Positions 19,604-43,316 of a DNA stretch of 64,000 nucleotides are shown here, piece after piece. Origin of the DNA: Candidatus Thorarchaeota archaeon. Its GTDB lineage: Archaea; Asgardarchaeota; Thorarchaeia; Thorarchaeales; Thorarchaeaceae. Position 1 is the first letter of the stretch, and each line of letters opens with the position of its first letter. The notes beneath the pieces were generated by a model. That model did no database searches. It was not told the origin of the DNA and worked only from the letters and a program-made list of their open reading frames with translations. Position numbers and translations under genes: made by a program. Location: contig JAGSHN010000018.1 of NCBI GenBank assembly GCA_029855935.1, positions 76,547 to 140,546 on the forward strand. Reading direction: 5' to 3'.

Positions 19604-20545
19604 TCATAGGAACTGAATTACGATATCAATTATTATGATGATTGTGATAGCAATGAGATAGTACCTGCGGATTCTGTTGAATCTTGTGATCTCCTCGTCG
19701 ATTCCTCGAGAGATCTCGGATATCACTTCTATTGCATCGTGCATTCCCGACTCCGCATTCCTGTACAGATTGATTGCGTCTTCGAGGGTAAGATTTGGAT
19801 CACGAATCTCATCTCCTGGAGATGCAAGCACGATTGCTCTACACTGTTCTGCTTCTCTGTAGAGGTCCTCGGGTCGCATTCGGCTCCACTTCGTGGCTCC
19901 ATAGCGCGAGACTGCACTCATTGTCATTCCAAGGACACCAATGTAGAGAGAGGGAATGATGCATAGAAGTTCGAGGTAGTTGAGTCCCCAGGTGCCCGAC
20001 GCAAACAGAGCATTCGCCAAGTACGAATCAATTGCTGTTTCAGCATCAACGTAGTGCTGGAACAGATACAAGAGCACTGCCAACCCAATGACGAGTGCAT
20101 AGGGAGAGAATGAACCGGGATGCATAATTCGAAACATCGAGAGATTATACTCACGATAGCGAGACTCACTATTCTCGCTTGAGTGAAATACCACCGAGTT
20201 CGCCAGAAGAAAACTGGCATCCAGCCTCTCGGTGTTGAGCGAAATGGCATGCAGTGTGGCATCAGCAGCTTTCAGCACGCCTCTCAACATAAGGATGCTC
20301 GCTAGCAGGATTGCAGCTACACCAACACCAGTTGTCAGAACACCCATGCGGAGGAGAACACCTGTCCCTCCATTCATCGCCAACTCAACTGCTAACAGGA
20401 ATAGAAGTTCGGTGATGACAATAGAGTATGCAGCATCTTGCATCTTGCCTGAAACCCTGCCAAGCTTCTCCGGGTGTTCAATAGACTCAAGTGTGACACG
20501 AAACCGGCCCATTGCAGTATCAAGCTTGTCTTCTTCTCTGGACAT
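19604..20545 (-). CDS. Multi-TM membrane protein, putative immunity partner of toxin-like copy T2
   Basis: About five hydrophobic segments; starts 36 nt after T2 stop; lower GC. Confidence 0.6.
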   Translation of the reverse strand: MSREEDKLDTAMGRFRVTLESIEHPEKLGRVSGKMQDAAYSIVITELLFLLAVELAMNGGTGVLLRMGVLTTGVGVAAILLASILMLRGVLKAADATLHAISLNTERLDASFLLANSVVFHSSENSESRYREYNLSMFRIMHPGSFSPYALVIGLAVLLYLFQHYVDAETAIDSYLANALFASGTWGLNYLELLCIIPSLYIGVLGMTMSAVSRYGATKWSRMRPEDLYREAEQCRAIVLASPGDEIRDPNLTLEDAINLYRNAESGMHDAIEVISEISRGIDEEITRFNRIRRYYLIAITIIIIIDIVIQFL

Positions 20546-20581
20546 TTGCTTCTCACTCGACCATCTCTGGTTCGACCCCTA

Positions 20582-21628
20582 TCACATGAGTTGAACTATC
20601 GCATCGATCATGGCTATTATGCCAATTGCTGCTGCTGAGCAAGCGGCGAGACGGACCCAAATGTCAGGCGTATCCGATAGAGCCAGGGCTGCCGCACTTC
20701 CACCCAGCAGGTACTGGATTGCAGAAATAAAAGAGGGAATCTTGAATGGGGAGGCAGCTGACACAACATAACCGATGACAGAACCTATCACTGCATTGAA
20801 CGTCTTTCCAACCATTGAGTTGATTGCCATTAGTACTGTTCCAACACTAGCACGAAGAAATTCGAGAATCTCCTGAAAGGCATAGCCAATCACAGCTCCA
20901 ACCCCAAATGTGAGGATAGCACCGAGAATACTCAATAGGAGACTTCTAGAATGCCATTTTACGTAATATGCTCCGACAAAGAATAGGCCTGTCAGAACAG
21001 CAATTGCAGGAATTCTGACAGAGGCCCAATCTTGCTGGATTGACAATACGATGGGCGCTGTCTCTCCCAACGCAATGGACTGGTATCTCTCAACGATGGC
21101 ACCAACAAGACCCAGATCGGAGGTGAGAATACTCGCTACTGCGATACCACCTATTCCCGCTTCAATGGTTCCACCAATGGACAATACGTCCCTTCCTGCA
21201 TAGTCGCAAATTGCCTCCGAGTGGCAGGCCAGAACTATGTCTTTGCCAGGCGTTGTCTTTGTCCAGACACTAAACCTCTTCCAACTGACAGTCTCCCTGT
21301 TAACCAGAATCCCGGTCTCTGAGCCGTGAGAGAGCCACACGACTCTTCCACACAGTCCGGGAGATTGTCAAAACGTATTCCAAAGAACCGTACTCCACCA
21401 CTCGCACATCTGGTACGTTCTCAGTGATGGTCCGCACTGCTGTGTTCATCGCATGGTCATAGTCCATCACGACAATATCCGTCATCAAACGAAACAACGT
21501 AGAATCCATGTTTTTCATTCTCACAGCGGGCCTCACAGCAGAATGAAAAACAGTGCTGAAAGCCAAAGAGAGAGTAGGAGAATCAATACCAGAAGACTTG
21601 GGTGCCAGCGTTGCGTACAGCACGGCAT
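20582..21628 (-). pseudogene. T2: caspase/CHAT-like protease + hydrophobic C-terminus, frameshifted
   Basis: Pieces in three frames: leader (21628-~21560), TDIVVM...EYGSL (to ~21350), VVWLSHGSETG...DIVLACHS to stop; one extra base near 21349 versus paralogues. Confidence 0.8.
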
Positions 21629-22252
21629 ACCAAGCTGTCGCTCAAGATCTGCAAGAGCATACTGTGAAGGATCTCTGTTGGCAGAGGTTTCAGCTACTGT
21701 CTCCGCTGAGCTATGCCTGATTCGATTCATAACGTGGGCGAGCCACCAATCGTAGAAGACTATGAGAGCCGAACAACCAATACCTATGAACCCCACAAGA
21801 AGGAAGACTGTAGCAGTCTCAGTATTGCTCTGACTGAGACTGGCCACCAGCGTTGTGACCAGGGTGACAATCAGTGAAGTGATCACTCTTGGAACACCGA
21901 CCCGGGCTCTCTCACCAGGGAGGAGAGCAATTCTCTTGATGCGGTCATCCCAGTCCGGCCCGTTCTTCTCCGTCTGAGCAACGATTGCAATGGCAACTGA
22001 CACCCAGGTAGTCATCCTCGCAGATACTGCCATCCATAGCAAGAGTGCGATGGTCAAGACCATGCCCAGACAGATGGTTGCAGCCCCCAGTAGGGCGGAC
22101 AACAGTCCGGACTCAGTCGAGGGTGGTCCAACAACAACAAGACCGAGAATGAATATGCTGTACAGAATGGTCAGGTGAACACACGTCTCAAGGTAGTAGT
22201 CAATAGATGACGGGAGTTCCAGTTGGATTGGTCCGGTACTGAAACGACTCAT
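21533..22252 (-). CDS. Four-TM membrane protein, putative immunity partner of T1 (C-terminus reads into T2 leader)
   Basis: Starts 28 nt after T1 stop; last 31 aa are the hydrophobic leader homologous to 39300-39380. Confidence 0.6.
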   Translation of the reverse strand: MSRFSTGPIQLELPSSIDYYLETCVHLTILYSIFILGLVVVGPPSTESGLLSALLGAATICLGMVLTIALLLWMAVSARMTTWVSVAIAIVAQTEKNGPDWDDRIKRIALLPGERARVGVPRVITSLIVTLVTTLVASLSQSNTETATVFLLVGFIGIGCSALIVFYDWWLAHVMNRIRHSSAETVAETSANRDPSQYALADLERQLGMPCCTQRWHPSLLVLILLLSLWLSALFFILL

Positions 22253-22280
22253 TGCATCTCACACAGCTTATCATTGCACT

Positions 22281-23258
22281 CTATACGAGAAAAGTGTAGA
22301 TTGTCACAATAATGAAGTCAACTATTGAGACTGTCAGTATTGCTGCCGATGCTGCAAACGCTGCCCTGATCCACGGTTGAGCTATGGAAACAGTACAGCC
22401 AAAGAGAGATGCCACTCGTCCTGCTAGAAGTCCGAACAGGTATGCGGCGCCCGGCAACGCTCCTCCAATCACTCTCTGTATTGCAAGACCAACCAGAACA
22501 TTCACAATTGGTGAGACAACTGCAAGAAATGCTGCAGCTGAGGGGAAAAAGCACTGGAGCAGATAGAATCCTATGCCTCCCAGAAGAGTTAGAATGCCTG
22601 AGATGACCGTAACTAAGAGAGGAGGATATGCATAGCTTGCTACCGCCTCTGGAACTTCCTTTTCTGCAGCTCCAAAATACCACCAAGTGAGTAGGGCCAC
22701 CAAACCCGCCTTGACCGCAATCCACCATGGGGGCACGACACCTAGAAATTCTGGCACAACAGACCCCAGAACAAGACTGGTAGTTCTTTCCCATACAGCA
22801 CGAACAATATATCCAGTGGGACTGAGAAGATAGGCGACAAACAGTCCTCCAAGGGTCGCATCAATAGTACCACCGATACCTATGGCCTGTGAGGAAGAGA
22901 CATACTCATTGACTCTGTCAGACTCACAGGCAAGAACGATATCCCTACCGGGAGTCAGTGTTGTCAGACGACTGAACCTCTTCCACGTCATCATCCCGCT
23001 TCGGAGAAGAATCCCCTCCTCAGAGCCATGGGACACCCACACGACTCTTCCAAACGCTCGATGGATTGTCAATGCATAATCCAGCGAGCCGTACTCCACC
23101 ACCTGGACAGCAGGTGCATTCTCGGTGATAGTCCGGACCGCTGTGTTCACCGCACTGTCGCGATGCATCACCACAACAACATCAGCCATCACTGGTGCCG
23201 AGAGAGGCATGACCCACAGCGGGGACACCATCACGACCATCACAAGAATAATTCTCAA
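22281..23258 (-). CDS. T1: leader + caspase/CHAT-like protease (His77/Cys111) + 153-aa hydrophobic C-terminal domain
   Basis: VVWVSHGS and DIVLACES motifs; paralogous to 41623-42753 and 20582-21628. Confidence 0.8.
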   Translation of the reverse strand: MRIILVMVVMVSPLWVMPLSAPVMADVVVVMHRDSAVNTAVRTITENAPAVQVVEYGSLDYALTIHRAFGRVVWVSHGSEEGILLRSGMMTWKRFSRLTTLTPGRDIVLACESDRVNEYVSSSQAIGIGGTIDATLGGLFVAYLLSPTGYIVRAVWERTTSLVLGSVVPEFLGVVPPWWIAVKAGLVALLTWWYFGAAEKEVPEAVASYAYPPLLVTVISGILTLLGGIGFYLLQCFFPSAAAFLAVVSPIVNVLVGLAIQRVIGGALPGAAYLFGLLAGRVASLFGCTVSIAQPWIRAAFAASAAILTVSIVDFIIVTIYTFLV

Positions 23259-23777
23259 CAGAGTACGGTCACGACGACCGACCGACCTGGATTAGCCCGT
23301 GGGCTCACTCCGCTACCCACCAATCTCTCTCTCCCTCGTACATAGTGACTTGTTGAGTCTTCCAGTTGGGCAGATGGATATATGCTTTGTGGGCGGTCTT
23401 CAAGACCGAAAACATCTCCACGGGGACACTGCAACACGGGCTGAGATGATTGCGACCATCTGGCATAGACTGTCATCTTCAGTCCCTCCGGAGTGAATGT
23501 TGACTACTCCAGACGCCAGACTGGACCCAGTGGAGTGACCCTCGCACGGGGCCGAATACCCCACCAATGGGAATTCGGCGGGGTCCAGAAACTATCAGTA
23601 TCGGGAAATATTCGCAGCAATCCAGACTTGCCTCTCTGGGGGTGAATACTTGTGGAGAATGAGCACAGACAGAAGACTTTATCACAGAAGAGAGTCGCCG
23701 CTCTGTGATTTCCGTGTGAACAGTTGATGGCGGCGTGGTGACAAAAACACACGAGGAGTACTGAGATGCCAAATCCT
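23008..23777. repeat. Long direct repeat, copy A (5' end of T1, promoter region, XPB start)
   Basis: Near-identical to 42515-43193 over 23008-23340 and 23630-23777, more diverged between. Confidence 0.9.
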
Positions 23778-25475
23778 GCGAATCCCCTCATAGTGCAGTC
23801 GGACAAGTCGGTCCTGCTTGAAGTGGACAACCCGCTCTACGAGGAGGCCAGAGACGCCCTCGCGAGATTTGCAGAGCTGGTCAAGAGTCCAGAGTACGTT
23901 CACACCTACAGAATAACACCACTCAGTCTGTGGAACGCCGCTGCCATCGGGATGACGCCAGACGAGGTCATAGAAACGCTCGAGCGGTACGCAAAGTACC
24001 CAATCCCTGGAAACATAGTCCGAGAGATCATCGACTATATGAGCAGGTACGGGCAGATCAGCCTCTACAAGGAGGGCGATATGCTCATCCTCGAGTGTGA
24101 GAGCGAGGACCTCTGCGAGGAGATCTGGGCCCACAAGCAGGTACGGGAACACCTGCTGGAGCGACTCGATGCAACGCGAATCCTTGTCGACCCCGCCAAG
24201 CGTGGCTTCGTCAAACACGCTCTCATCGAGATAGGCCATCCCGTCGAGGATGTCGCAGGATACATCGAGGGCGAGCCCCTTCCGTTCGAGCTACGGGAGA
24301 TCACTCTCTCAGGCAAGCCCTTCAGATTCAGGGAATACCAAAGGGATGCGATAGAGGCGTTCTATGCAGGCGGCGGGGAGCGCGGCGGCTCTGGAGTCAT
24401 CGTCCTTCCCTGTGGCGCCGGCAAGACGATTGTCGGCATCGGGGTGATGCATAAGCTTCAGACATCCACTCTTATTCTGTGTCCGAACGTGGTGGCTGTC
24501 AGACAGTGGATGGCAGAGCTGCTGGACAAGACCACGCTGACGGAGGACCAGATTGGCGAGTACTCAGGCGACACAAAGGACATCCGCCCTGTGACCGCAG
24601 CCACCTATCAGATACTCACCTGGAGAAAGTCGAAGACTGGCGACTTTGAGCACTTCAAGATCTTCGGAGAACGTAATTGGGGACTGATCATATACGACGA
24701 GGTGCACCTACTGCCCGCACCGGTGTTCAGGGTCACGGCTCAGATACAGGCCACCCGCAGACTCGGCCTCACCGCCACACTCGTGCGAGAGGACGGTCGT
24801 GAGGAGGAGGTCTTCAGCCTCATCGGGCCAAAGAGATACGATGTCCCGTGGAAACAGCTTGAGGAGCAGGGCTGGATTGCCACGGCCATCTGCTACGAGA
24901 TAAGAGTGGACCTGCCGGACAGCCTCAGAAGGAAGTACGCCTTGGCAGAGGACAGGAAGAAGTATAGAATTGCCGCTGAGAACCCGGTGAAGCTTGACAT
25001 CCTCAGGAAGATCGTGGAGTACCATCGTGACGACAATATCCTCATCATCGGGATGTATCTCGACCAGTTGAAACAGATAGCAGACATGCTGGGCGCACCT
25101 CTCATCACTGGCAAGACGAGCAATGCGGAGAGAGAGGCACTCTATGGGGCCTTCAAGAGGGGCGAGATCAAGGTCCTCGTCGTATCAAAGGTGGCCAACT
25201 TCGCTCTCGACCTGCCAGATGCCAATGTGGCCATCCAAGTGTCAGGCACCTTCGGGTCGAGACAGGAGGAGGCACAGAGGCTTGGCCGGATTCTCAGGCC
25301 CAAGTCGGATGGCAGCTTCGCAAGGTTCTACTCCATCATCACAAAGGACACACGCGATATGGACTTTGCAGCCAAGAGGCAGCTGTTCCTCACGGAGCAG
25401 GGATATCAGTATGTGATCGCATCGGGTGACGAGGAGATCTGGAAGACGCCACCAGAGACCTTCTTCAGGGCCTAG
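23766..25475 (+). CDS. xpb: XPB/Rad25 SF2 helicase with N-terminal XPB/Ssl2 domain
   Basis: LPCGAGKT, DEVH, GLTATLVRED, QEEAQRLGRILR. Confidence 0.95.
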   Translation: MPNPANPLIVQSDKSVLLEVDNPLYEEARDALARFAELVKSPEYVHTYRITPLSLWNAAAIGMTPDEVIETLERYAKYPIPGNIVREIIDYMSRYGQISLYKEGDMLILECESEDLCEEIWAHKQVREHLLERLDATRILVDPAKRGFVKHALIEIGHPVEDVAGYIEGEPLPFELREITLSGKPFRFREYQRDAIEAFYAGGGERGGSGVIVLPCGAGKTIVGIGVMHKLQTSTLILCPNVVAVRQWMAELLDKTTLTEDQIGEYSGDTKDIRPVTAATYQILTWRKSKTGDFEHFKIFGERNWGLIIYDEVHLLPAPVFRVTAQIQATRRLGLTATLVREDGREEEVFSLIGPKRYDVPWKQLEEQGWIATAICYEIRVDLPDSLRRKYALAEDRKKYRIAAENPVKLDILRKIVEYHRDDNILIIGMYLDQLKQIADMLGAPLITGKTSNAEREALYGAFKRGEIKVLVVSKVANFALDLPDANVAIQVSGTFGSRQEEAQRLGRILRPKSDGSFARFYSIITKDTRDMDFAAKRQLFLTEQGYQYVIASGDEEIWKTPPETFFRA

Positions 25476-26302
25476 TCAGGCTCAGAGCCAGAGGTCTCGA
25501 ACCGCGAGAGGCTCTTTGCGGTCTCTCGAAGGTCGTCGATGGACAGGGCGTAGATGCCCTCTGACCGCACGTCAAAGGTCACCCAGACGGGGATGTGACG
25601 CGCGCCCTTCATCTTGGTTATGCGGAACTGCTTGACAAGAGCGCCAGCCTTTGCAAAGGCCGGCTCGTGACGCGTGTCAATCAGGACATCACTCGTATAG
25701 CTGATGACGTCGTCGTAGGCGGCAAACTGCTGAAGGCCTGTGTGATAGACTGCCCAGAAGGGGATGTTGAGGTCCTTGCAGAAGGTGGCACGCCAGGCCT
25801 TTGCTGCATTGACTGCCTTGAAGGGATGGCTCTGAACAAAGAACTCGGTCAGACTGTCAAGGTAGATACCAGCTATCGAGTCGGCCCCCATTCTGTCTAT
25901 CAGAGAGTTGATTGTGTCAGTAATGGTGTCAGTGTTGCTGGGATCACGTACGACGTGGGTGTGCTCAAGGGCAGGTGTCCTGCGCAGGATGAGGCTGGAG
26001 AAGCAGTCCACCAGCTCAATCAGGTCATTCTCAAGCGCCTTCTCGTGCTGCCATCCAAGGGAAACTAGATTCTGAAGTATAGAGATCGGAGAGTCCTCAA
26101 AGCATACGTAGATGACCTTGTGACCAGCCTCTGTGGCACGCCGCACCATCTCATTCATTATCACGGACTTCCCACCGCCGCCCGGACCACGAATCACTCC
26201 GAAGGCGTTTCGCGGAAAACCGTCCGGGGCCTGGTCGTCCAGCACTGGCACACCAGTGTGATAGAGGATCTTCCCCTTTGCCAGCTTATCGCTCAGGCTC
26301 AT
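25472..26302 (-). CDS. KaiC/RAD55-family RecA-fold ATPase
   Basis: TGVPVLD, GPGGGGKS, YLDSL, ITKMKG. Confidence 0.85.
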   Translation of the reverse strand: MSLSDKLAKGKILYHTGVPVLDDQAPDGFPRNAFGVIRGPGGGGKSVIMNEMVRRATEAGHKVIYVCFEDSPISILQNLVSLGWQHEKALENDLIELVDCFSSLILRRTPALEHTHVVRDPSNTDTITDTINSLIDRMGADSIAGIYLDSLTEFFVQSHPFKAVNAAKAWRATFCKDLNIPFWAVYHTGLQQFAAYDDVISYTSDVLIDTRHEPAFAKAGALVKQFRITKMKGARHIPVWVTFDVRSEGIYALSIDDLRETAKSLSRFETSGSEPD

Positions 26303-26374
26303 CAGGCCATTCCCGCGCAATGTCTGGCAGAGCTGATATTTACAATTTCCCAGTGGTCCCGGAGCGCGGTAGGT

Positions 26375-29845: not shown

Positions 29846-31576
29846 ATGCCACGGGAACCTCTCGAGTCCGAACTGAAACATATGTTCAGAGAAGACCTCA
29901 TTGTTGCCTGTCAATACTGGGGGGTCGACCTGAGCACCAGCAAGTCCGGTGACGAACTGACGCAGCTACTTGCAGAGAAGATGAGGGACAGAGAGGCTCG
30001 TGAGAGAATCTTCGCCACGTTCTCCGACAGGGAGTACGACCTGCTCGGAATGCTGTGCCTCAACGGAGGCGCGATGAGCTACGACGGGCTGAAGCCCTAC
30101 AGAAAGAAGTACTCCTACGGACAGCTGAACCAGACCGAGAGGGAACTCAGAAAGAAGGGCATCATAGTCAGACGGATTGTGCAGCGGGTGACGGACCTTG
30201 GTCGCGAGGTCGCCGAGTTCAAGATAATTGACTTCTTCCTACCGCATCTCATTCAGTATTTCAGTCGTAAACCCGAACACGTCTCGCAGCCTCCGAAGAG
30301 AATAAGGAACTTTGTCAATGAACGGGACTCGCTGCTTGTCGATATCCTGGTGCTCGTCTCGCATCTCGCGACCAACCCCGTAAAGATGACGACAACGTGG
30401 GAGTTCCCCCGCAGAGAGATTGAACGGATCAAGACCGCTCTCTCAAAGCAGACAGACGAACGCTTCGAAACCGTCCAGAGAGTTGCGCGCAAGTGCGGCG
30501 CATACGTCATCGTTGAGGATGACAAGGCGGTACCGGGCCGCATCGACAGGCTCTTTGATGGCGACCAGGCCGAGGTGTCAAAGCGCATACTCCTCGCAGC
30601 GCTGGGCCGCACCAGGGCAATCTGGGCAACTCCCGACCAGCCGACCGAGTTCACATTGAACCTTGCCATATGCAGGCTGCGAGAGAGCAGCGAGGGCGAT
30701 TGGATAACGATAGAGGAGATGAAGCAGTGGATTCGGAGCGAGCTCTTTATCGAGAAGGAGCCACTGAAGTGGATCCAGGTCGATGAGAATAGAGTGGCAA
30801 TTGCGCTTGAGATTCCAATCCTGCTCGGCCTTCTTGAGGCCGCGTACAAGGGCCGGAAGCTTGTCGCTGTTGCACTGACACAGGTCGGTGCGGCTGTTGT
30901 GATGAATCGCCGTCTTCCAGAGAACGAGAGCAGAGAGACCTTCTTCGTGCAGCCGAACTTCGAGATAACGTGTTTCACTCCAGAGATGAACTACGCGGAC
31001 CTGTATAGGCTGATGCTGTTCACGGAGCCCGTCAAGATTGACGTTGTGTCGACGTTTCGAATCACCGACCGGTCGGTATTCAAGGCCGTGGAGCTCGGTA
31101 TGAGAGAGAAGGACATAGTGGAGTTCCTTGAGTCGAAGAGCAGCAAGCCAGTGCCGAAGAATGTGGCGAGGTCAATCCGTGACTGGATTGGACGGATGAC
31201 CTTCGTCAAGATATCGACTGTGACGCTGCTGGAGACAGAGACGGAGAGGGACCTTGAGGGATTGCTGCTCATCAGAGGTCTTGAGGATCATGTTGTGAGA
31301 CGAGTGGGACCGACCGCTGTCATTGTGAGTGGCGATGTCGAGGAGCTGGTCGACCTGCTCAGGGACAACAAGTGCCACGTAACACGTCCCGGGGAAACCA
31401 CGTCTCCTCTGGAGGCCTCACACGGGACTGCCATTGCTGAGCAGGTGTTGCTGTACGAGCAGGCCGCGGCTGACGATGTCCCCGAGGACTGCATGGGATG
31501 TCCAGCTATCCAATCGTGCACGCGTGTGCTGAGACGTAAAGTGGAGAAGAAGAGGCGACGCAGGGTTGGTGCGTAG
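29846..31576 (+). CDS. Helicase-associated (Helicase_C_3, Tfb2/p52-like) domain protein
   Basis: VQPNFEI...FRITDRSVFKAVELGM...PVPKNV..SIRDW; C-terminal CMGCPAIQSC. Confidence 0.8.
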   Translation: MPREPLESELKHMFREDLIVACQYWGVDLSTSKSGDELTQLLAEKMRDREARERIFATFSDREYDLLGMLCLNGGAMSYDGLKPYRKKYSYGQLNQTERELRKKGIIVRRIVQRVTDLGREVAEFKIIDFFLPHLIQYFSRKPEHVSQPPKRIRNFVNERDSLLVDILVLVSHLATNPVKMTTTWEFPRREIERIKTALSKQTDERFETVQRVARKCGAYVIVEDDKAVPGRIDRLFDGDQAEVSKRILLAALGRTRAIWATPDQPTEFTLNLAICRLRESSEGDWITIEEMKQWIRSELFIEKEPLKWIQVDENRVAIALEIPILLGLLEAAYKGRKLVAVALTQVGAAVVMNRRLPENESRETFFVQPNFEITCFTPEMNYADLYRLMLFTEPVKIDVVSTFRITDRSVFKAVELGMREKDIVEFLESKSSKPVPKNVARSIRDWIGRMTFVKISTVTLLETETERDLEGLLLIRGLEDHVVRRVGPTAVIVSGDVEELVDLLRDNKCHVTRPGETTSPLEASHGTAIAEQVLLYEQAAADDVPEDCMGCPAIQSCTRVLRRKVEKKRRRRVGA

Positions 31577-34016: not shown

Positions 34017-34964
34017 CTAGCGCAGGGAGAGCAACACGCGGGCCAGTGCTCTGCCCAGCTTTCTAAAGTCAGAGTCGGAGATGTGAGGCACAGACCTCGT
34101 ATGTGATGGAATGTCAAAACGGGCGACCACGATTGTCACATTGCCATCCATTGAGTACTCGAAGAGTGCTGGATACCTCGCTCGAATCCTCGCATGCACC
34201 TTGTGCTCCTCGACTACGGGGCCCTTGTAGTAGCTCGCGACGAGATACGGATAGACGATTGATGATACCGACACCTGCACCTTGATCTGCAGTTCATCTG
34301 GCATGCCCTTCACACCAATCGCGGGCTCGGCATCGGCGATTGCAAGCGCACCATCCCGCTCTGCAAGCTTGACCTTGTACTTCACATCCAAATCAGGAAC
34401 GTCTGCCAGTGCCTCCACGTACCCGAGAACGTAGCCTGTTGGGGGCTCCGTGATGTAGGGGTGAGGATCCACCTTCGCCCACTTGTAGCCGATGGAGTAG
34501 CCAAGTATCGCCACCACTAGGTTGAGAATGATAGTCACAGCTGTGATGACCTGAGGACCGTACGTAGTCAACAGCTCCTCTCCAAGCATGAATATGAGGA
34601 ACATCACGAGAAGCTGACTGACAAGGGCAAGGCATAGGGCGGTGACGCAGGCACAGCTGACATCGGATGAGATGAGATGACCGTAGGCGTCCATATGCTT
34701 CTTGACCATCTCCCGGTATTCCTGGGGTGTGACTCTCACAGTCCGGACGTGCCACTCTCCAGGGAGGTAGTCAATGGCCCGTTTCGATGCCCAGCCAAGG
34801 ATGAGTGCCAGTAGGAGAAGCAGTAATGTCGCTATGTCCAAGACGTAGAAGGGTAGGAACGTAGAGAACCCGAGAGTGATGCTTAGGAACACGAGAACTG
34901 CGGCGGAAACAAGAGTGACCCTGCGCGATCTCGAGTAGTCCACAATGCCTGCATCCTTGCTCAT
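34017..34964 (-). CDS. Four-TM membrane protein, paralogue 3 of the 43372-45332 family
   Basis: Y.P.EW..R...T..EY..M...Y.HL motif shared with both paralogues; start MSKDAG. Confidence 0.8.
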   Translation of the reverse strand: MSKDAGIVDYSRSRRVTLVSAAVLVFLSITLGFSTFLPFYVLDIATLLLLLLALILGWASKRAIDYLPGEWHVRTVRVTPQEYREMVKKHMDAYGHLISSDVSCACVTALCLALVSQLLVMFLIFMLGEELLTTYGPQVITAVTIILNLVVAILGYSIGYKWAKVDPHPYITEPPTGYVLGYVEALADVPDLDVKYKVKLAERDGALAIADAEPAIGVKGMPDELQIKVQVSVSSIVYPYLVASYYKGPVVEEHKVHARIRARYPALFEYSMDGNVTIVVARFDIPSHTRSVPHISDSDFRKLGRALARVLLSLR

Positions 34965-35069
34965 CCTCTCACTCGCCCAAGATACTGTGAGCGTCTCAGC
35001 CAGATGTTTACATATCAAGTTTGCGAGATACAGCGCTAGGTGCATAGACGCTCCGGGCCAGACAACAGC
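34953..35069. repeat. Direct repeat, copy C (start/upstream of gene 34017-34964)
   Basis: Matches 43189-43316, which has an 11-nt insertion and ATG changed to ATA. Confidence 0.92.
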
Positions 35070-35227: not shown

Positions 35228-35371
35228 CTATAGACGCGTAGTATGTAATACTGTACTGATAGGGTATACTCTCGATACCGTGATGATTGCAGCCGATGCC
35301 ACAGGAACAGCCGCAATCCAGGGTTCTACCGTAGAAACATAGTCAGCATTCCCTTGCTCCACTGTCGTCAT
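35228..35371 (-). pseudogene. T5: remnant of a toxin-like C-terminus
   Basis: VSTVEPWIAAVPVASAAIITVS aligns by eye with T1 VSIAQPWIRAAFAASAAILTVS. Confidence 0.65.
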
Positions 35372-35423
35372 CTCGATGGACCCAACCTATCAAGTACAGC
35401 GCCAATGTTCTCTTCGTGATCTC

Positions 35424-36152
35424 TCATAGTCTTCTCAATCGCTGGTCCACCAACTCGAGAACGAATGCTCTCTCTTTGACCAAGCGATAGAATCGGATCT
35501 TCTTTCTCGCCTCTCTCTCAGTCCAATAGCGTAGTGCCAACCATCCCGCAGCACTGACTAGCATATAGCCCGCGGCGGGCAATACCACAAACATGTTCAG
35601 CAAGGGACCCCACGCATATGAGGGAGGAAACAGGTAGGAGAGCGCTGTGTAGAGTGGTTGTGTGGTCATCCCCAACATTGGCGCAAGAATAGATGCGGCC
35701 TGCCTGGGACTGAGAACACATCTTCCTCTCACCGATAGCTCGGAGAGAAAGGAACGATAGGAATTCGTGAGCACCAGGCCCAGTATCCCGCCAAGAACCA
35801 CTAGGAGAAAGAGAACAGGTTTTACCAGATCTCTCCCTATGAGAGCGACCAACGTCTCATCCATCTCGTTCGGAACTATTAGCACGTAGCGGGACAGCAG
35901 GAAGGGAAGTGAGATGATAAACACAACCAGAGCCCCAAACAGAAAGAACCAATCTATTGAGAGCCAGACGCTCAGATCCACCCAGTCCTTCCTTCTCCTG
36001 ATAAGACCTGATAAGGTGATTAACGGAGCCATTCCAAATCTCACCCTATTGAGTATCTCAGTCTCATCGTACGTAGCGGCCGTCGCCTCCCACAGGTATG
36101 ACAAGACCCACTGCGCCATCGCCGCATACATAGAGGCAGAACATCTCTCCAA
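35424..36152 (-). CDS. Multi-TM membrane protein, possible orphan immunity gene
   Basis: Four to five hydrophobic segments; accessory tract; start uncertain. Confidence 0.55.
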   Translation of the reverse strand: MERCSASMYAAMAQWVLSYLWEATAATYDETEILNRVRFGMAPLITLSGLIRRRKDWVDLSVWLSIDWFFLFGALVVFIISLPFLLSRYVLIVPNEMDETLVALIGRDLVKPVLFLLVVLGGILGLVLTNSYRSFLSELSVRGRCVLSPRQAASILAPMLGMTTQPLYTALSYLFPPSYAWGPLLNMFVVLPAAGYMLVSAAGWLALRYWTEREARKKIRFYRLVKERAFVLELVDQRLRRL

Positions 36153-36455
36153 TCTTCACATACGTTTCAGAGGATGAAATATCTTTGTAGAAGACCCAAC
36201 CACCACACTTCTGCTCTTTTGGGTGGTGATTGGAATGCGTTCTTTAGAGAATGGGAGAAGACGGTCAACAACTGGGAACTACTCGGGGATGAGGTCGCAC
36301 CTGTCACCCGGGTGGTCAGCAGCACAAGGCCACCAAATGTGGACCTACCAGCTTGACACTGTGGTACTTCGATATGGATAAATTCGACAACGAGGAACTA
36401 TGAGATGAAGAATCACTCTTCATTCTCTCTTGTCTGGCGGGAAGGTGATGGCGAC

Positions 36456-37829
36456 TTGAAGAGGTGGTCTCTTGCCCTGCTTGTCTGTGTACTGGTGCTG
36501 ACCGTGCAGATGCAGCTATCCTACGGGCCAGATAGTGTTGCCTCGCCAGACACCATCAACGTGACCAACGGGGGAGATGTCGCATCCAACGAGATTCATC
36601 GCACCACGCGTCGCCAGGCAATCATCGATTTTGTCATGGCTCTCTACGATGATAATCTGGATGTCTACGATGGTGACTATGCCGTGTTCTATGGGTTTCT
36701 CACGCAGGCTCCGTGGGACCCAAGAATTCATCACAACCCCAGCCCCGACAATGTGTTTGACGGATATTTCGTTCTGAAGAGGTTGAATGCGACTGACCTC
36801 ATTGACTGGAGCAAGTGCAAGAATTTCCTCAAGAGCCTGATCAATCTAGACCCCGAGAGCGACTACTATCATCTTCCCAATTCATCAATCGATACTGCGC
36901 CTGATGTCTGGACTTGCGACACAGTGACCGAATACTACCCTGAACTGGGACTGGAGAGCTGCATATATCCAGACGAGATTACCCAGTTCGTGAGTGGTCT
37001 GCAGAAGACAGATGGTGGATTTGGGACAGCTCCCTTTTCTGATGAGATTGTGGAGAGTGCCACGATGACTGGCACAGCCTTTGCCCTCAGAACGCTCAGA
37101 CGTCTGGGACGTCTCGATATGATTGACAAGGAGGCGGCTCTTGACTTTGTTCTCTCCTGCTACAAGGACGATGGCGGATTCTCCGACATGCCGACAGGTG
37201 AGTCGCTCGTGGGTGCTGTCCCACTCGCGATAATGGCGCTGGAGGCACTGGGACGGACTGACCTGATCAGGACTGAGGAGACAACGAACTTCACGCTTCA
37301 GTTCCTCGACAACAACACAGGGGACGTACCGGACCATACGATAGTCACCCTGTATCGAATACTCTGGTCGCTGGACCATATGGGGACACTGGACAGGGTG
37401 AATCTCGATGCTGTGTTGACGTGGGTACTTGACTGTCAGTCCGCACAGAACGGAGGATTCGACCCCGCTCCGGACCATATGGATGAGTGGAAGGAGAATC
37501 TCTATCTCACAAGGGTGGCGACAGATATTCTTGAACTCCTCGGGCGAATGGACCTTCTCGACGAGAATATGACAGTCTTCCATTATCCCAAGCACACGAT
37601 TCCGGATTGGTACATAGAGTTGACGAACAGGGAGTTTGGGAACTCAACCAGTACCACCACTGCGCTGGGAGGAGGATCGTGGGGTCTTCCATCAATTGAC
37701 ATCCTGAGTGTCATTGCACCATTCGTGCCGGGACCTCTACTTCTGACTCTGATCGCCTCACTTGGAGTCTACATCTACTACTCAGAGAGACAGAGGAGGA
37801 AACTGAGTCGGCTTAGAGAGAAGAGGTAG
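36456..37829 (+). CDS. Secreted, membrane-anchored prenyltransferase/squalene oxidase repeat (PFTB) protein
   Basis: GGTGAT SD + TTG start, signal peptide; LQKTDGGFG, CYKDDGGFS, CQSAQNGGFD repeats; Thr-rich linker, TM, basic tail. Confidence 0.85.
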   Translation: MKRWSLALLVCVLVLTVQMQLSYGPDSVASPDTINVTNGGDVASNEIHRTTRRQAIIDFVMALYDDNLDVYDGDYAVFYGFLTQAPWDPRIHHNPSPDNVFDGYFVLKRLNATDLIDWSKCKNFLKSLINLDPESDYYHLPNSSIDTAPDVWTCDTVTEYYPELGLESCIYPDEITQFVSGLQKTDGGFGTAPFSDEIVESATMTGTAFALRTLRRLGRLDMIDKEAALDFVLSCYKDDGGFSDMPTGESLVGAVPLAIMALEALGRTDLIRTEETTNFTLQFLDNNTGDVPDHTIVTLYRILWSLDHMGTLDRVNLDAVLTWVLDCQSAQNGGFDPAPDHMDEWKENLYLTRVATDILELLGRMDLLDENMTVFHYPKHTIPDWYIELTNREFGNSTSTTTALGGGSWGLPSIDILSVIAPFVPGPLLLTLIASLGVYIYYSERQRRKLSRLREKR

Positions 37830-38145
37830 GTAGGACAGAGACCGCAGCTGACCCAATAGACCACTCACCACCTTGAAGGGCACCGCGAGTTGAGTGAGGA
37901 TTGGACCTCACGGCCATTCTCTCCCGTTCGCTCCAGATTGCCCGACGGCCACCTTCTTTGTACACGCGCCGACACAGGCGTGCCATCTACCACGACCATT
38001 TGATAGAGGTTCACCGTCCTCAAACATAGTATCTTGCCAGCAAGGCTGAGTCAATAGCACTATGTCGGATTCACCATAGAACAAGAGCGCAGCAAAGACG
38101 GAAGAATCCACATGTTTTTCCACTAGATGGGACTGTGTGGGAAAA

Positions 38146-38365
38146 ATGATAGCGAAGTGTGATGACTGAGGGAGAACATACTTACCAAAGAGAGAGGCCT
38201 GGCAAAGAATTCAATCTCGTTGATACTACAACGGGAATCTATCTTGTACCCATTCCAGCCGACCCGGTAAAGGATCTGGAAGAAGAGTCGGCAAAGGACC
38301 TCCCGAGAAGTCAATAGAGAACTTCAAAAGAAACACTCAAGAGCAGGCAATGGGGGTACTTGAGT
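38146..38365 (+). pseudogene. vapB: AbrB/MazE-type antitoxin (vapB) pseudogene
   Basis: MIAKCDD*GRTYLPK / GKEFNLVDTTTGIYLVPIPADPVKDLEE / KSIENFK in shifted frames. Confidence 0.7.
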
Positions 38366-38717
38366 ACTCTATGTGGGTACTGACTTCTTTCTTGCACTGC
38401 TCGAGGCAACAGACTAGCCAAAGAAGAAAGCACGGTCAATTCTGAGGAGACACAAGGGCAATGGTACGACTTCAGAAGCAACTCCTATTGAGATGATGCT
38501 TTTGGCAAGAAAATACAGTCTGGACTGTGTCAGAATTGCTACGGACATTATGAGAATCTGCGGAATAGAGGATTCAACATACTGAACGGCGCTGTGCATC
38601 TCTGAGAGTGTCGGGGTCTTTGATGCCTTTTATGCAGGTCATCGCAAGGGCAAGACAATCAGCTCAGACTCTGTCTATGGTGGACTCGGACTGAAAATAG
38701 TCAGGCTTGAACGTTGA
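38364..38717 (+). pseudogene. vapC: PIN-domain toxin (vapC) pseudogene
   Basis: LYVGTDFFLALL..TD*...TSEATPIEM...Y*...VGVFDAFYA / TISSDSVY; two stops and a frameshift. Confidence 0.8.
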
Positions 38718-39152
38718 CAGTTGTAGTATTTTCGCATCAAGAAGTTAGTGAAAAAATCAGCCCATACAAGACCTGTAGTGAACAGACTACCAGAAACTAC
38801 TCCCAACAGGAAACATACCAGTGTTAGAATCCTCCTTCTCTTCAAGTATGGAAGAAACCTGCCAATTCCGCAGACATTGGATGTCCAAGATGGACCAACG
38901 CGAATATTGGCGATTCTGAACCCTGATTGTGTGTCCCCGTCTAGTCTCATAGCAACATATCGACCAATCCTACTAGACTTCCACGCCAACACAGTGTCTC
39001 TGCCTGGGTCATCTCAGTTCTACTACTAGACATTCTCCAGCTAGGAAGCTGTCTGTCTGCAAGAACCCTCTCACCTGAGCCTTGATACAGACAACTCTAC
39101 TAAGGGCTCGATGGATGGTCAGAGGATACTCCGGAGATTCAGGATCCACTAC

Positions 39153-39450
39153 CTAGACATCGGGTACGTTCCCGATGATGGTCCCCACTGCTATGTTCAC
39201 CGCACCATCACAATGCATCAGGACAACATCGGTCACACTTCTCGGACGAAATAGCAACAGGCAGTCTAGGTCCCTCACCTCCGTAGCAGGCCTCGCACCA
39301 TTGAGAACAGTGCTGAAGACCAGAGAGAGTGGGGAATCAATACCAGAAGACTTGGGTGCCAGCGTTGCGCACAGCACGGAGTACCGAGCTGCCGCATAAG
39401 ATCTACAAGAACGTGTTGTGATGAATCTCTGCGGACCGAGGTTTCAACTC
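39153..39450 (-). pseudogene. T4: 5' remnant of a toxin-like gene, homologous to 21400-21700
   Basis: Shared gaatcaataccagaagacttgggtgccagcgttgcg; TDVVLMHCDGAVNIAVGTIIGNVPDV*. Confidence 0.85.
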
Positions 39451-39539
39451 ATAAGTCTACAAAGGCACCCCCATGGTCGGTGCCTATCAGAGAAACTGAA
39501 CTGTGGCACCAATCATTGTGATGATTGCGCTCCATTCAT

Positions 39540-40288
39540 CTATGAGTTCACATAGGCCGCCAGAAAGAGTACGACCTCCTTGGGAACTGTCTTGTCAAGA
39601 TGTCGTATCAGCAGCCGTCGTCTAGGCCCGAACGTACGAGTCCCAAGACCTTGCCACAGGATCTCCCTGAGGGAACGCCCACCAATTCTTAGAACAACCC
39701 GCTCTTTCGGTCCACCAGTTCAAGTGTATGAATACCAACTCTGCTATCAGGGGCAAACCATCTTGCGCCCTCTTCGTCGTATACTACGTACGTAGCGGGC
39801 TCGCCGATTGGGCTTGCCACAGGAGACCTTGACCAGATGAATCCATAGGTATACGTATCAACATAGTAGGTCTCACCAGCGCCTGTCGGAATCTCAACAA
39901 CGTTCTTCGCTGGTGAGCCATCGTCCCCTTTGACAAACCTGATTGTTGTCCGAAGACGGACTCCATCAGCATCCAATACGGAGAACTCTTGATTGAAATC
40001 GAGCATTTGATGCGCCGTTTCAGCATCCCAGACCGAGGAGTTCCTAAGGATTAGAAGGCAGGATTCGCTCTTGTGTTTCTCTCGTTCAATCGTCCACGCT
40101 TTCGCACTGATACGAGCATCAGACAGACGACTCCAGTGAATGTACTCTGTTCGTTGGAGAACAATTCGGGTATTATCGAGGTCTAGTGTTTCCAGCCTCT
40201 CCGTTGGGGCATATCGCCTGAGCATCCTCTCACGCCATCTCTCAGTACTCCTTCTGACAGCCTCCCTAGGCCTCTCACTCAGAGGCAA
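39540..40288 (-). pseudogene. Frameshifted paralogue of 40828-41619
   Basis: One base missing near 39705; other frame continues ERVVLRIG...VPKEVVLFLAAYVNS* matching IPKELALFMAAST. Confidence 0.8.
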
Positions 40289-40827
40289 GGTACGCCACTC
40301 CTCATAGTCTCGTGCTCAGTTCTTCCATCTACATTGCTCAGAACCAATAGGTGTTGCGCCACCTGCGACTATATGCAAGAGTCCATCGAGGACACTCTAT
40401 GTAACTATTGTTTCTATTGTGACGGGTGACTGGTCATTGGAATGAGTGGTTGTCTCTGCTATGTGAACGCCAAAGGACGCCTCCTATTGCTGTCAATGTG
40501 AGAAGAAGAACACCCCGTATATCTCAGGTGACAGCCAGTTCAGCAGGGCAGTCTCCTCCTTGATGATACATCTGAAGACATGGAGAAGAGCATACACAAG
40601 TGTCAACATAAGGAGGACAGTCAGACTCCCTCGTCTGTATTGATGTTCATCGAGTGCAAGACCCTCCCAGTGTGCACAGAATGACCAGGGACCATACCCA
40701 GAGTCTTCTGTCAGTAGATATCATCTATGACCCCCAGTAGTCCCTCCAACTACCGTAGCCACTCTGGGAGACATCCTTGCTCCTTTCACTTGTGTCTCTT
40801 GCGTGTGTCACACATTGCAGAAGGGCC

Positions 40828-41619
40828 TCACATAATCGTAGAAGCCGCCATGAATAGGGCAAGCTCCTTGGGAATCTCTGGAGCAATCGACTCGAATCTT
40901 ACTTGTAGTCTTCCCGGCCCGCGGAGTCCAATGATTGCGGCCGCAAACCTCTGCCACATCCTGATACGCCCCAGATTCAGAACACATTGTCCTCGGGCAT
41001 CAACCATCTGCAAACTTTGGACACCCCATTCAACAGCGTACCACCTGGGTCCGCTCTGATCTCGAACCACAACTGTGGGCCTCATCCGTAGCGACTCAAC
41101 AAATGGAGCGTATTCAATTGCTCTCCGTGGTTTCCCGCCCTCTATACTGCAGATTCCCCGGTATGAATCGACAAAATAGATGTGGCCATCTGAATCCTCT
41201 ATCTGCGTGGCATATTTGCCAAAGCTACAGGTCAACATTGGCAAGAATATCGATGTCTTGAGGCACACCCCGTTCCTGTCTATGATGGCAAACTCGTTTC
41301 TCCAGATGATCATATTCTCAAGGGTTTCTGCATCCCAGACCACAGGATGTTTCACTATCAGACAGTAGGTCTCTTCAGGGTGGGCCGGTCTGGACACCTG
41401 ATACCCACTCATTCTTCCAAGTCCCTTGAGTCCTATCCTGATGGCAGGCATCTCATATTCTCGAAGAGTAACTGTGCAGCCACTCAGATTCAGACTCTCA
41501 AGTTCCCCAATCGGGCGGTACTTCTCTAGGAGGTCCTGTCTCCATCTGTCAACTCGCTCTGCGACCCTTTGCTTCATCTCTGTCTGCACAGCCACTGGTC
41601 CATCCCTACTGTCCGTCAA
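40828..41619 (-). CDS. Soluble beta-rich protein (possible tubby/scramblase-like fold), putative immunity partner of T3
   Basis: Directly follows T3; beta-strand pattern with terminal hydrophobic helix; fold is a guess. Confidence 0.6.
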   Translation of the reverse strand: MTDSRDGPVAVQTEMKQRVAERVDRWRQDLLEKYRPIGELESLNLSGCTVTLREYEMPAIRIGLKGLGRMSGYQVSRPAHPEETYCLIVKHPVVWDAETLENMIIWRNEFAIIDRNGVCLKTSIFLPMLTCSFGKYATQIEDSDGHIYFVDSYRGICSIEGGKPRRAIEYAPFVESLRMRPTVVVRDQSGPRWYAVEWGVQSLQMVDARGQCVLNLGRIRMWQRFAAAIIGLRGPGRLQVRFESIAPEIPKELALFMAASTIM

Positions 41620-41622
41620 ATA

Positions 41623-42753
41623 TCATACAACAAGTTCAAAGGTGCAGCAAGGAGCATATGCATAGGAGAAGGTATCAATCACATATTCCAAGACCCCAAT
41701 TACGATGGATACCCATTCACTGACACCGATTTTTGATAGAGCCATGTCGGCAGTCATGGTCAACTTTCCCAGTCTTAGGGCAAGTGCACGTGATAGTGGT
41801 CCACTGACATACGTGCTTATCAAGGGGATCAAGACAGCATTAACCAATGGCATAATATTGCCCAAGCCAATTAGACTCAAGATGTGAGGCAACAAGAGGC
41901 CTATGGCATACGTGATAAGTGAACTAAGAAATGTGAGCACATACATATCAAGTGATGAAATGACCGCAGTTACCAATGTTCCTATGAGTGAAACCGCAAG
42001 GCCCCCTAGTATGGCTGTGCAGAACACTTGCAAGGCTGGTTTGATGAGAACTGGCCAGATCCAATTGAGTAGTCCATTTCCGAAACCAATGTCAATACAA
42101 TCCAAGAGAATGCCTATCGCATCCCAAGTAGTCCCAAACACACCAATCCCGAGCGCTAGGCAAGCGTGTAGCATAAACGAGAGTGTGTTTCCCCTAATAG
42201 TCGCACTCGGCCATGGATAGTAGGATATCTGAATCGTGAATGGAGCAAGAAGATGTAGTCTTGTTTCGCCTTTCAGAAGCCTAGATATCTGGGTAAACAC
42301 CATACCGCTCAACGTTGCCTCCGTCGGTCTGAGCAAGAAGGTGGCTATGAGCGCACCAAGTGTAGCATCTACTAGTCCGTCAAAACCCACGGCAATAGTC
42401 GGGGATACATACTTGTTTATGTTTCCAGATTCACAGGCCAGCACTATGTCCTTTCCCGGGGTCATCGCGGTTCTACTACTGAATGCTTTCCATGAGAGCA
42501 TACGTGACTGTGTGAGAATCCCCTCCTCTGAGCCGTGGGACACCCACACGACTCTTCCAAACGCTCGATGGATTGTCAATGCATAATCCAGCGAGCCGTA
42601 CTCCACCACCCAGACATCAGGTACGTTCTCAGTGATAGTCCGGACCGCTGTGTTCACCGCACTGTCGCGATGCATCACCACAACAACATCAGCCATCACT
42701 GGTGTTGAGAGAGGCATGACCCACAGCGGGGACATCATCATCACAATCATCAC
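41623..42753 (-). CDS. T3: leader + caspase/CHAT-like protease (His73/Cys107) + 207-aa hydrophobic C-terminal domain
   Basis: VVWVSHGS, DIVLACES; N-terminus nearly identical to T1, C-terminus not alignable by eye. Confidence 0.8.
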   Translation of the reverse strand: MMIVMMMSPLWVMPLSTPVMADVVVVMHRDSAVNTAVRTITENVPDVWVVEYGSLDYALTIHRAFGRVVWVSHGSEEGILTQSRMLSWKAFSSRTAMTPGKDIVLACESGNINKYVSPTIAVGFDGLVDATLGALIATFLLRPTEATLSGMVFTQISRLLKGETRLHLLAPFTIQISYYPWPSATIRGNTLSFMLHACLALGIGVFGTTWDAIGILLDCIDIGFGNGLLNWIWPVLIKPALQVFCTAILGGLAVSLIGTLVTAVISSLDMYVLTFLSSLITYAIGLLLPHILSLIGLGNIMPLVNAVLIPLISTYVSGPLSRALALRLGKLTMTADMALSKIGVSEWVSIVIGVLEYVIDTFSYAYAPCCTFELVV

Positions 42754-43316
42754 AAGAACAATTCTCAGCGAGATGCGGTCATGACGACCGACCGACCTAG
42801 ATTAGCCCGTGGGCTCGCTGCACCACCCATCAATCTCTCTCCCTCATATGCGATTCCTTGTCGAATCCGACACCTGAGCAGATGAATTTATGTCTTGCGG
42901 GCGGTCTTCAAGACTGGGACTTCTCCACGGCGACACTGTGACACGGGATGGAATGATTGCGAGCCTCTGCATCGATGGCCATCCGAGGTGGCCTCGCCGA
43001 GAAACCACCGATACGGAGTGTATTCATAGCTACCTAGACCCAACTCTCTTGGGGATGAACACTTGTTGCGGAAAATGAGCATAGACAGAAGACTCTATCA
43101 CAGAGGAGAGTCGCCGCTCTGTGATTTCCGTGCGAACAGTTGATGGCGGCGTGGTGACAGAGACACACGAGGAGTACTGAGATGCCAAATCCTTGCTTAT
43201 CCTCTCACTCGCCCAAGATGCTGTGAGCGTCTCAGCCAGATGTTTACATATCAAGTTTGCGAGATACAGCGCAGTAACCACCATAGGTACATAGACGCTC
43301 CGGGCCGAACAACAGC
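42515..43316. repeat. Chimeric repeat A'+C' joined at ATCCT (43189-43193)
   Basis: 42515-43193 matches 23008-23777; 43189-43316 matches 34953-35069. Confidence 0.9.

Follow-up and report, generated by a model that had tools for sequence, protein, structure and literature searches.

Predicted CHAT-like peptidase proteins with exchangeable membrane tails and cognate downstream genes: a candidate toxin-immunity-like module of Asgard archaea

RESULTS

Two arrays of T genes in a “Candidatus Thorarchaeota” contig

The window analyzed here is a stretch of 64,000 nucleotides (nt) from a “Candidatus Thorarchaeota” archaeon (GenBank assembly GCA_029855935.1, contig JAGSHN010000018.1, positions 76,547 to 140,546 of the forward strand); the positions given below are counted from its first letter. 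It carries two arrays of genes of one family, at 19.6 to 23.7 kb and 35.1 to 43.3 kb, whose members we call T genes. T1 and T3 are open frames with the layout that the initial annotation had assigned to them, namely, a hydrophobic leader, a domain of ~150 amino acids (aa) with the motifs VSHG, LAC(E)S, and G.G.(I/V)DA, and then mutually unrelated hydrophobic tails, or tips, of 150 to 200 aa with approximately four predicted transmembrane (TM) helices. The genes located 3′ of T1, T2, and T3 all lie on the same strand as the T gene and represent three families unrelated to one another, F11, F10, and F2 (Table 1), and the earlier statement that each begins within 40 nt is borne out. A fourth intact family member was found on another contig of the same genome.

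The description of T2 had to be revised. It had been read as a single open frame at 20582-21628, while the stretch taken for its leader (MPCCTQ...FFILL) actually belongs to the T1 partner gene and forms the C-terminal helix of its product, and the T2 domain is split across frames near 21340; T2 is thus an orphan cassette that lacks a leader and carries a frameshift. Its open frame, 20582-21340 (252 aa), starts within the domain and retains the His, the Cys, and a tip class of its own, and the earlier portion of the domain (21345-21476) lies in a different frame. In another genome, a homologue of the F10 gene located 3′ of T2 lies two genes downstream of a T gene (locus L062).

The second array contains several remnants in addition to T3 and its partner. 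The remnant placed earlier at 39153-39450 was recovered as part of a decayed copy of the junction between the F11 3′ end and the T2 5′ end, in which a fragment of the F11 C terminus (39305-39445, 73% identity) is followed by N-domain pieces (38888-39227) in shifting frames. A second remnant, proposed at 35228-35371, does resemble the end of the T1 tip, and this similarity is weak. The intact orphan partner gene of family F1 adjoins the remnant of an F3-class tip, and F1 proteins pair with F3 tips in other genomes. The 5′ flank of T3 has at its end a duplicate of the opening codons of gene 34017-35045 (43189-43272, 98% at the DNA level).

Table 1. Features of the two T-gene arrays, with positions in the window
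Feature	Position	Strand	Description
T1	22281..23258	minus	Open frame, 325 aa, intact family member
T1 leader	23187-23258		Residues 1-24, hydrophobic
T1 CHAT-like domain	22743-23186		Residues 25-172, predicted fold
T1 His77 codon	23028-23030		
T1 Cys111 codon	22926-22928		
T1 junction	22743-22766		GSVVPEFL
T1 tip			Residues 173-325, predicted ~4-5 TM helices, tip class F5
T1 partner	21533..22252	minus	Family F11, 239 aa, polytopic membrane protein; start 28 nt past T1 stop
T2 orphan cassette	20582..21476	minus	Domain onset at ~21476 without leader; frameshift near 21340
Gene 3′ of T2	19604..20545	minus	Family F10, 313 aa, membrane protein; gap 36 nt
T3	41623..42753	minus	Open frame, 376 aa, intact family member
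T3 His73 codon	42535-42537		
T3 Cys107 codon	42433-42435		
T3 junction	42247-42270		GETRLHLL
T3 tip			Tip class F4, 201 aa, ~4 TM helices predicted
T3 partner	40828..41619	minus	Family F2, 263 aa, soluble; gap 3 nt
Second F2 copy	39546..40288	minus	Frameshifted near 39750, without T gene of its own; tblastn mapping
Decayed F11-3′ end/T2-5′ end junction copy	38888..39445	minus	Repeats D1 and D4; tblastn mapping
F3-class tip-end remnant, weak	36067..36219	minus	37% identity over 51 aa, E 1.5e-5 (tblastn)
Orphan partner, intact	35424..36152	minus	Family F1, 242 aa, membrane protein
Possible T1-class tip-end remnant, weak	35228..35371	minus	17/33 identical, E 0.005 (single comparison)
Duplicated 5′ flank of T3	42754..43356	minus	Homologous to 23259-23777 upstream of T1; repeats D3, D5, D7, and D8
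Prenyltransferase-fold gene	36405..37829	plus	Inside second array

Predicted clan-CD, CHAT-like fold of the shared domain

The initial annotation had proposed that the shared domain is a His/Cys peptidase domain of clan CD, and structure prediction agrees with this proposal. An AlphaFold (AF2) model of T1, made with 30 homologues as input, is confident for residues 24-170 (pLDDT 80 to 90); the tip part of the model was ignored for fold matches because of its pLDDT of 40 to 60. The modeled elements run in the order b1-a1-b2-a2-b3-His77Gly78-small hairpin-a3-b4-Ala110Cys111-a4-b5-a5, with His77-Gly78 just past the strand at residues 71-75 and Ala110-Cys111 just past the strand at residues 106-109. 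In clan-CD peptidases, about five helices surround a central beta-sheet that is mostly parallel, and the catalytic His is located on the loop after b3 and the catalytic Cys on the loop after b4 (PMC4357240), and the chain-wise element order of the T1 model matches this layout.

The comparison with caspase, CHAT, and C80 folds that had been suggested for the T1 domain placed a CHAT protease, 8tl0, first by two methods: by Foldseek (E 5.6e-4) and by VIA, which is independent of Foldseek and covered 48,161 chains (Z 10.8, 141 residues aligned, root mean square deviation 3.8; next match, Z 8.3). Further structural matches include legumain, Csx29, C11, the MARTX CPD, and caspases. Among the ESM Atlas shape matches, CHAT and C13/C14 clusters are on top, and the ESM Atlas feature rows, which are weak, come from the same clan and include peptidase C80 at 0.77. 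The Foldseek rows for C80 (3gcd and 3eeb) are weak as well (E about 1e-2).

His77 and Cys111 are invariant (139/139) among the 139 representatives that contain the full domain, and three further residues are nearly so (Ser113 in 136, Asp133 in 132, and Gly78 in 130). When the 139-sequence profile was compared by hhalign with six genuine Thorarchaeia CHAT domains, the best local path, of marginal significance (P 0.037), was co-linear, placing VSHG on the HG of CHAT, LACxS on LSaCxt, and G.G.IDA on the W.V.D strand. Judging from the topology of the model and from this alignment to the CHAT motifs, we infer that His77 and Cys111 are adjacent in three dimensions. Of the 91 sequences aligned across the junction between domain and tip, 90 have Leu172, which makes this residue a candidate self-cleavage site; Arg158, present in 60/127, is a weaker alternative.

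Sequence libraries were scanned with T1, T2, T3, and ten partner or flanking proteins. Pfam, NCBIfam, and PADLOC gave no match to the shared domain (none in Pfam at E ≤ 1), a PDB sequence-profile search with the domain alignment returned nothing at E ≤ 10, and the CHAT Pfam model (PF12770) found no match in this genome. The libraries returned rows at chance level only, such as those for MscL (E 0.5) and archaeosortase B (E 0.008), which fall well short of the cutoffs. As the initial annotation had supposed, no description of this family was found in the domain libraries or the literature searched. Given the modeled fold and the conservation, we regard the shared domain as a new compact clan-CD-like domain outside the CHAT Pfam family and as a putative peptidase.

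Range of the family and other architectures

We searched 1.84 billion representatives exhaustively with a profile of the domain and found 265 clusters at 50% identity (E ≤ 1e-3). With so many representatives and with His and Cys invariant throughout the full-domain set, the family extends far beyond chance. The source names of its members include Thorarchaeota and Heimdallarchaeota. The family occurs in 44/87 genomes and 16/17 genera of the class and in 78 of the 301 sampled Asgard genomes of the phylum, with at most 12 matches per genome.

The usual architecture consists of the leader, the domain, and a tail of 140 to 220 aa with two to five predicted TM helices, giving a typical protein of 300 to 430 aa; tails of the F3 class are more polar than the others. 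Since a net positive charge precedes the hydrophobic stretch in 84/87 leaders, the domain is predicted to be outside the membrane. The same leader and domain are also found, at loci L038, L042, and L044 of other Thorarchaeia genomes and at L046 to L049, at the N terminus of PGAP1/DUF676/DUF7379-type alpha/beta hydrolases with TSP3 repeats and of surface proteins of 1,200 to 1,900 aa with TSP3 or bacterial Ig domains. The His, Cys, Ser, and Asp residues are retained in these fusions, and the domain thus appears to be a portable N-terminal module for exported cargo. Weak matches to alpha/beta hydrolases could in principle be caused by a GxSxG-type nucleophile elbow; this was ruled out, as the match is N-terminal to the hydrolase domain.

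Tip classes co-vary with partner families

A conserved N terminus joined to variable C termini, with downstream genes that co-vary, had been proposed from the window alone, and the same arrangement was found across genomes. We examined 44 loci from related genomes together with the window, and tails and downstream proteins were clustered separately. In the 31 pairs of a T gene and its partner, which are separated by gaps of −43 to +45 nt, tip class and partner class agree in 9/9, 4/4, 3/3, 2/2, and 2/2 cases. The F5 tips, the class of T1, occur with an F11 partner in 9/9 pairs (~6 distinct sequences), and the tip class of T3 occurs with F2 in 3/3; one tip class is found with two or three partner classes. 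The pairing also holds across separate loci of a single genome, the congeneric genome G003 (L051 and L054), in which F3 is joined to F1 at two loci and in one orphan pair.

Orphan cassettes also occur in these arrays. The array of G003 has the order T(F3)-F1-T(F4)-F2-orphan F3-F1-orphan F4, and its orphan F3 tail begins at the equivalent of residue ~182, right after the junction, with the partner gene behind it. An orphan in another genome retains residues 127-207 (the orphan arrays are L051 and L064). Partner genes outnumber tips in G003 (five F1 and three F3), genome G010 has partner-only loci, and partner genes were found without a T gene nearby. Small-xxx-small motifs are mildly enriched in the tips (5.0 versus 3.6 in shuffles), and we base no argument for pore formation on this enrichment.

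Predicted Tubby/LOR-like fold of the T3 partner

The AlphaFold model of the F2 partner of T3 has a pLDDT of 80.5 and a pTM of 0.84. Using VIA, we found the C-terminal domain of Tubby (1i7e, Z 8.6, 149 residues aligned) and the LOR protein At5g01750 (2q4m, Z 8.1, 140 of 162) well matched to it, with the next match at Z 5.5; Foldseek also placed Tubby first, weakly (E 0.018), and the ESM Atlas feature rows (0.86 to 0.87) agree with Tubby/LOR. The partner is therefore predicted to be a Tubby/LOR/scramblase-like closed beta-barrel around a C-terminal hydrophobic helix. No sequence-level match of this protein to PF01167, PF04525, or PF03803 was found, and F2 is the single partner family for which the fold is predicted here. 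The Tubby/LOR/scramblase fold faces membranes and lipids and is better known from eukaryotes. A lipid-facing fold would fit a T3 partner that acts on a membrane-embedded tail from the cytoplasmic side, and the model offers only a lead in this direction. No role of the Tubby/LOR fold as an immunity protein was found in the literature searched.

Recombination and turnover of the arrays

T1 and T3 share ~520 nt of upstream sequence and codons 1-83 in near-identical form (repeat D2, 93% over 244 nt), and their identity falls sharply past GSEEGIL, between the His and the Cys. Two paralogues in G003 have N-domains that are 73% identical, tips that are 35% identical, and partners that are 26% identical. 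The tail of one G003 paralogue is nearer to the tails of other genomes (58 to 61%), though its N-domain is more distant (46 to 48%).

Comparison with relatives indicates that both arrays are insertions. In G003 and G010, the orthologue of the transporter gene at 18040-19512 directly abuts the orthologue of the XPB-like helicase gene at 23766-25475, which identifies the array at 19.6 to 23.7 kb as an insertion. In G003, the orthologues of 43372-44325 (F13) and 34017-35045 (342 aa) are likewise adjacent, and thus the array at 35.1 to 43.3 kb, including the prenyltransferase-fold gene, is a second insertion. Conversely, G003 carries a cassette next to its orthologue of 5922-7340, whereas the corresponding site in this genome contains none. 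The arrays are flanked by housekeeping genes (RFC, KaiC-like, POR, fumarase, and RNase PH), and their GC content in 2-kb blocks is 0.49 to 0.52, against 0.55 to 0.59 in most of the window. No tRNA genes or Rfam families are present in the window, and hence there is no tRNA-linked integration signal. Inverted repeats flanking the arrays were not found, nor was an integrase or transposase among the genes scanned, which cover the small open reading frames only in part.

A few further observations concern these regions. Outside the arrays, at 10001-12000, the GC content shows another dip (0.486) of a depth similar to that of the array dips. The prenyltransferase-fold gene encodes an alpha-alpha toroid, and a homologue abuts a T array on a different contig in G003, as if traveling with the array. 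The genes at 43372-44325, 44322-45377, and 34017-35045 (minus strand) encode similar membrane proteins with N-terminal TM helices and a soluble C-terminal part, sharing a short motif around “...W(E/H)...S/TP(S/Q)EYE...”. The first two form one family by BLAST, and the likeness of the third was noted by eye only; 43372-44325 and 34017-35045 flank the second array.

DISCUSSION

A candidate conflict module and its proposed mechanism

The ways in which Asgard archaea compete, or distinguish self from non-self, are poorly understood. The T genes and their partners match the anatomy of a polymorphic toxin system in having a conserved part for export and processing, a peptidase in front of a swappable tip, a cognate downstream gene, orphan and partner-only genes, recombination, and island turnover. 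Based on this match, they may constitute a Sec-exported, self-processing polymorphic toxin-immunity-like conflict module across Asgard archaea, an interpretation that we favor and consider about as likely as not. Catalysis, self-cleavage, toxicity, immunity, and transfer to other cells are inferred.

In the proposed mechanism, the Sec-type leader of the first gene product would bring the compact clan-CD (CHAT-like) cysteine peptidase domain to the outer side of the cytoplasmic membrane, ahead of a conserved junction (P-x-x-Leu) and a swappable tip, usually a bundle of two to five TM helices. The second gene, immediately downstream, would encode a partner specific for the tip class, which may be a membrane protein or, in the case of T3, a Tubby-like lipid-facing barrel. 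After export, the peptidase would cut in cis at or near the junction and release the tip from the leader and domain; the freed tip would then act on membranes as a harmful or discriminating agent, and the cognate partner would neutralize it in the producer cell. Recombination within the conserved domain and shortly past it would generate diversity, drawing on orphan tip-partner cassettes as a reservoir, and cassettes would be gained and lost as small islands between housekeeping genes. Two predictions of this mechanism are testable, namely, self-cleavage at the conserved Leu and toxicity of a tip that is rescued by the cognate partner only.

Several points weigh against such a module. A Sec-exported tip with four or five TM helices would be expected to stay in the membrane of the producer, which is awkward for a classical secreted toxin; delivery to another cell would then need vesicles, contact, or membrane exchange, and neither secretion or delivery machinery nor a conserved accessory gene was found near the T genes in the loci examined. 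Known toxin, immunity, or defense families were not found in Pfam, NCBIfam, or PADLOC for the tips and partners. The co-variation itself is partly explained by co-inheritance of orthologous two-gene blocks: the identities of N-domain, tip, and partner all correlate across pairs, and overlapping assemblies account for several class-0 pairs that nearly duplicate one another. The more distant family members are without a downstream gene on the same strand. As to the fold, clan-CD membership was not found at the sequence level by Pfam, the PDB profile search, or hhalign; against the six Thorarchaeia CHAT domains, hhalign was not significant with a shallow profile (P 0.18) and marginal with the 139-sequence profile (P 0.037). 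Generic Rossmann-like folds (LacI/PBP and flavodoxin) reach Z 7 to 8 against the T1 model, and the fold call therefore depends on the top match, the topology, and the invariant dyad.

A more specific version, which we put forward tentatively, at less than even probability, is that a polymorphic membrane-toxin/immunity (archaeocin-like) system of their own is widespread among Asgard archaea, in which a new minimal clan-CD peptidase would release swappable membrane-inserting tips after Sec export and a Tubby-like barrel would be among the immunity proteins. If this is true, the archaea most closely related to eukaryotes would have arrived at polymorphic-toxin logic through an invention specific to their lineage, and delivery might use membrane contact or vesicles instead of a secretion machine.

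Alternative explanations

The T proteins could instead be membrane-anchored extracellular maturation or housekeeping proteases, with the tail as an anchor and the downstream gene encoding a substrate, regulator, or subunit; the domain would process surface proteins or its own cargo, and the diversity of paralogues would reflect different substrates. The predicted location of the domain outside the membrane and its presence at the head of large TSP3/Ig surface proteins and alpha/beta hydrolases speak for this explanation, as do tips unlike known toxins and distant members without a linked partner; a precedent for signaling TM proteins with an extracytoplasmic CHAT domain exists as well (DdvA, PMC11506125). 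However, housekeeping anchors are not expected to occur as enzyme-less orphan tail-partner cassettes or as remnants beside intact partners. Presence in one congeneric genome and absence from another, sharp intragenic recombination steps, and a family confined to only about half of the genomes of the class would be equally unexpected, and we regard this explanation as unlikely.

A function in self/non-self recognition or membrane compatibility without killing would make the tips and partners polymorphic identity markers, used, for example, in contact, fusion, or vesicle exchange. It would account for the polymorphism, the exchange of cassettes, and the strain-specific content, and it suits the predicted surface or membrane location of the products; other archaea are reported to have hypervariable modules whose role is unknown (PMC8416519). 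Yet it leaves the invariant dyad and the conserved junction Leu unexplained, and retained partner-only genes are more characteristic of a protective role than of the display of identity. This possibility appears quite improbable to us.

Still less probable is an antivirus abortive-infection module, in which the protease would keep a pore-forming tail inactive until a surface cue such as virus attack prompts cleavage and the partner would be a sensor or inhibitor. Protease-activated bacterial gasdermins and the CHAT-linked CRISPR/CBASS effectors offer an analogy, the nearest structures are those of defense CHAT proteases (8tl0 SAVED-CHAT and Csx29), and the modules are island-like, patchy, and fast evolving. 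Against this, PADLOC gave no match, no sensor domains or linked known defense genes were found in the loci examined, the predicted location of the protease is extracellular, and orphan tail-partner arrays are typical of inter-cell conflict, not of defense.

That the domain resembles clan CD merely as a Rossmann-like fold, its His and Cys serving metal binding, redox chemistry, or another hydrolase or transferase role in an unrelated membrane enzyme, would agree with the lack of a sequence-level tie to peptidase families and with the LacI/PBP and flavodoxin matches, and it is hardly credible given that a CHAT protease came first by two independent methods, clear of the rest, that the Atlas shape and feature searches also gave clan-CD families, that His-Gly after b3, Ala-Cys after b4, and the small hairpin before a3 are hallmarks of the clan, and that the co-linear alignment sets three motifs on CHAT motifs.

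Comparison with known systems

The logic of the conflict module that we favor is known from bacteria; new are the branch of peptidases, the tails, the partners, the minimal architecture, and the Asgard host. In bacterial polymorphic toxins, caspase-like releasing peptidases are located directly upstream of C-terminal toxin domains, and classical polymorphic toxin systems are reported to be scarce in archaea (PMC3482391). With the bacterial systems (Zhang et al. 2012, PMC3482391; also CDI and Rhs orphan arrays), the Asgard genes share a conserved N terminus, a peptidase right before the variable C terminus, a cognate downstream gene that co-varies with the tip, orphan tip-partner cassettes with a short conserved piece, partner-only genes, and strain-specific islands. 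Unlike their bacterial counterparts, the Asgard proteins are only 300 to 430 aa long and have a Sec-type leader in place of a long filament, repeat, or secretion-system domain. Their tips are mostly polytopic membrane bundles and not soluble enzymes, and tips, partners, and peptidase domain all fall outside described families.

CHAT proteases (PF12770; SAVED-CHAT 8tl0 and Csx29/TPR-CHAT 7y9x) are the best structural match and share the motifs h-h-h-x-x-H-G after b3 and h-V-L-(S)-A-C-x-S/T after b4 as well as an Asp on the following strand. The Asgard domain is shorter (~150 aa, compared with ~270 for CHAT), and it is predicted to be extracytoplasmic and N-terminal, on membrane tails, without a SAVED, TPR, or nucleotide-sensing partner. 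The CPD (C80) of MARTX and large clostridial toxins is a clan-CD domain within a toxin that cuts in cis after Leu and thereby sets effector parts free, and the Asgard family has a near-invariant Leu at the junction; however, C80 is activated by inositol hexakisphosphate inside the eukaryotic target, which is not applicable to the Asgard family, and the structural match is weak. Pore-forming colicins and the ionophoric CdiA-CT of Escherichia coli EC93 are membrane-depolarizing toxins with membrane-protein immunity. The likeness to these lies in the hydrophobic helical toxin parts and in small polytopic immunity proteins encoded directly downstream, whereas no sequence or fold similarity was found and their dedicated import and export routes are absent from the Asgard loci.

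About a quarter of the sampled Asgard genomes thus contain multicopy, fast-turnover cassettes, all made up of unannotated “dark matter” families. The T family would add a new compact branch to the caspase/CHAT-like peptidases, and the F2 partner would tie a Tubby-like predicted fold to a conflict-type locus. Should the toxin interpretation fail, a still unexplained polymorphic membrane system would be left in the lineage nearest to eukaryotes.

Other features of the window

The XPB-like helicase gene (23766-25475, plus strand), whose product is 81 to 92% identical in relatives, is located near a gene for a Helicase_C_3 (PF13625) protein (29846-31576, plus strand); RFC-like, KaiC-like, and APH-kinase-like genes lie between the two, and the whole forms a conserved syntenic block. 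An open frame of 2,889 aa (55307-63976, minus strand) occupies the end of the window. One DNA run of a hydrothermal vent metagenome, probably the sample of origin, contains the stretch.

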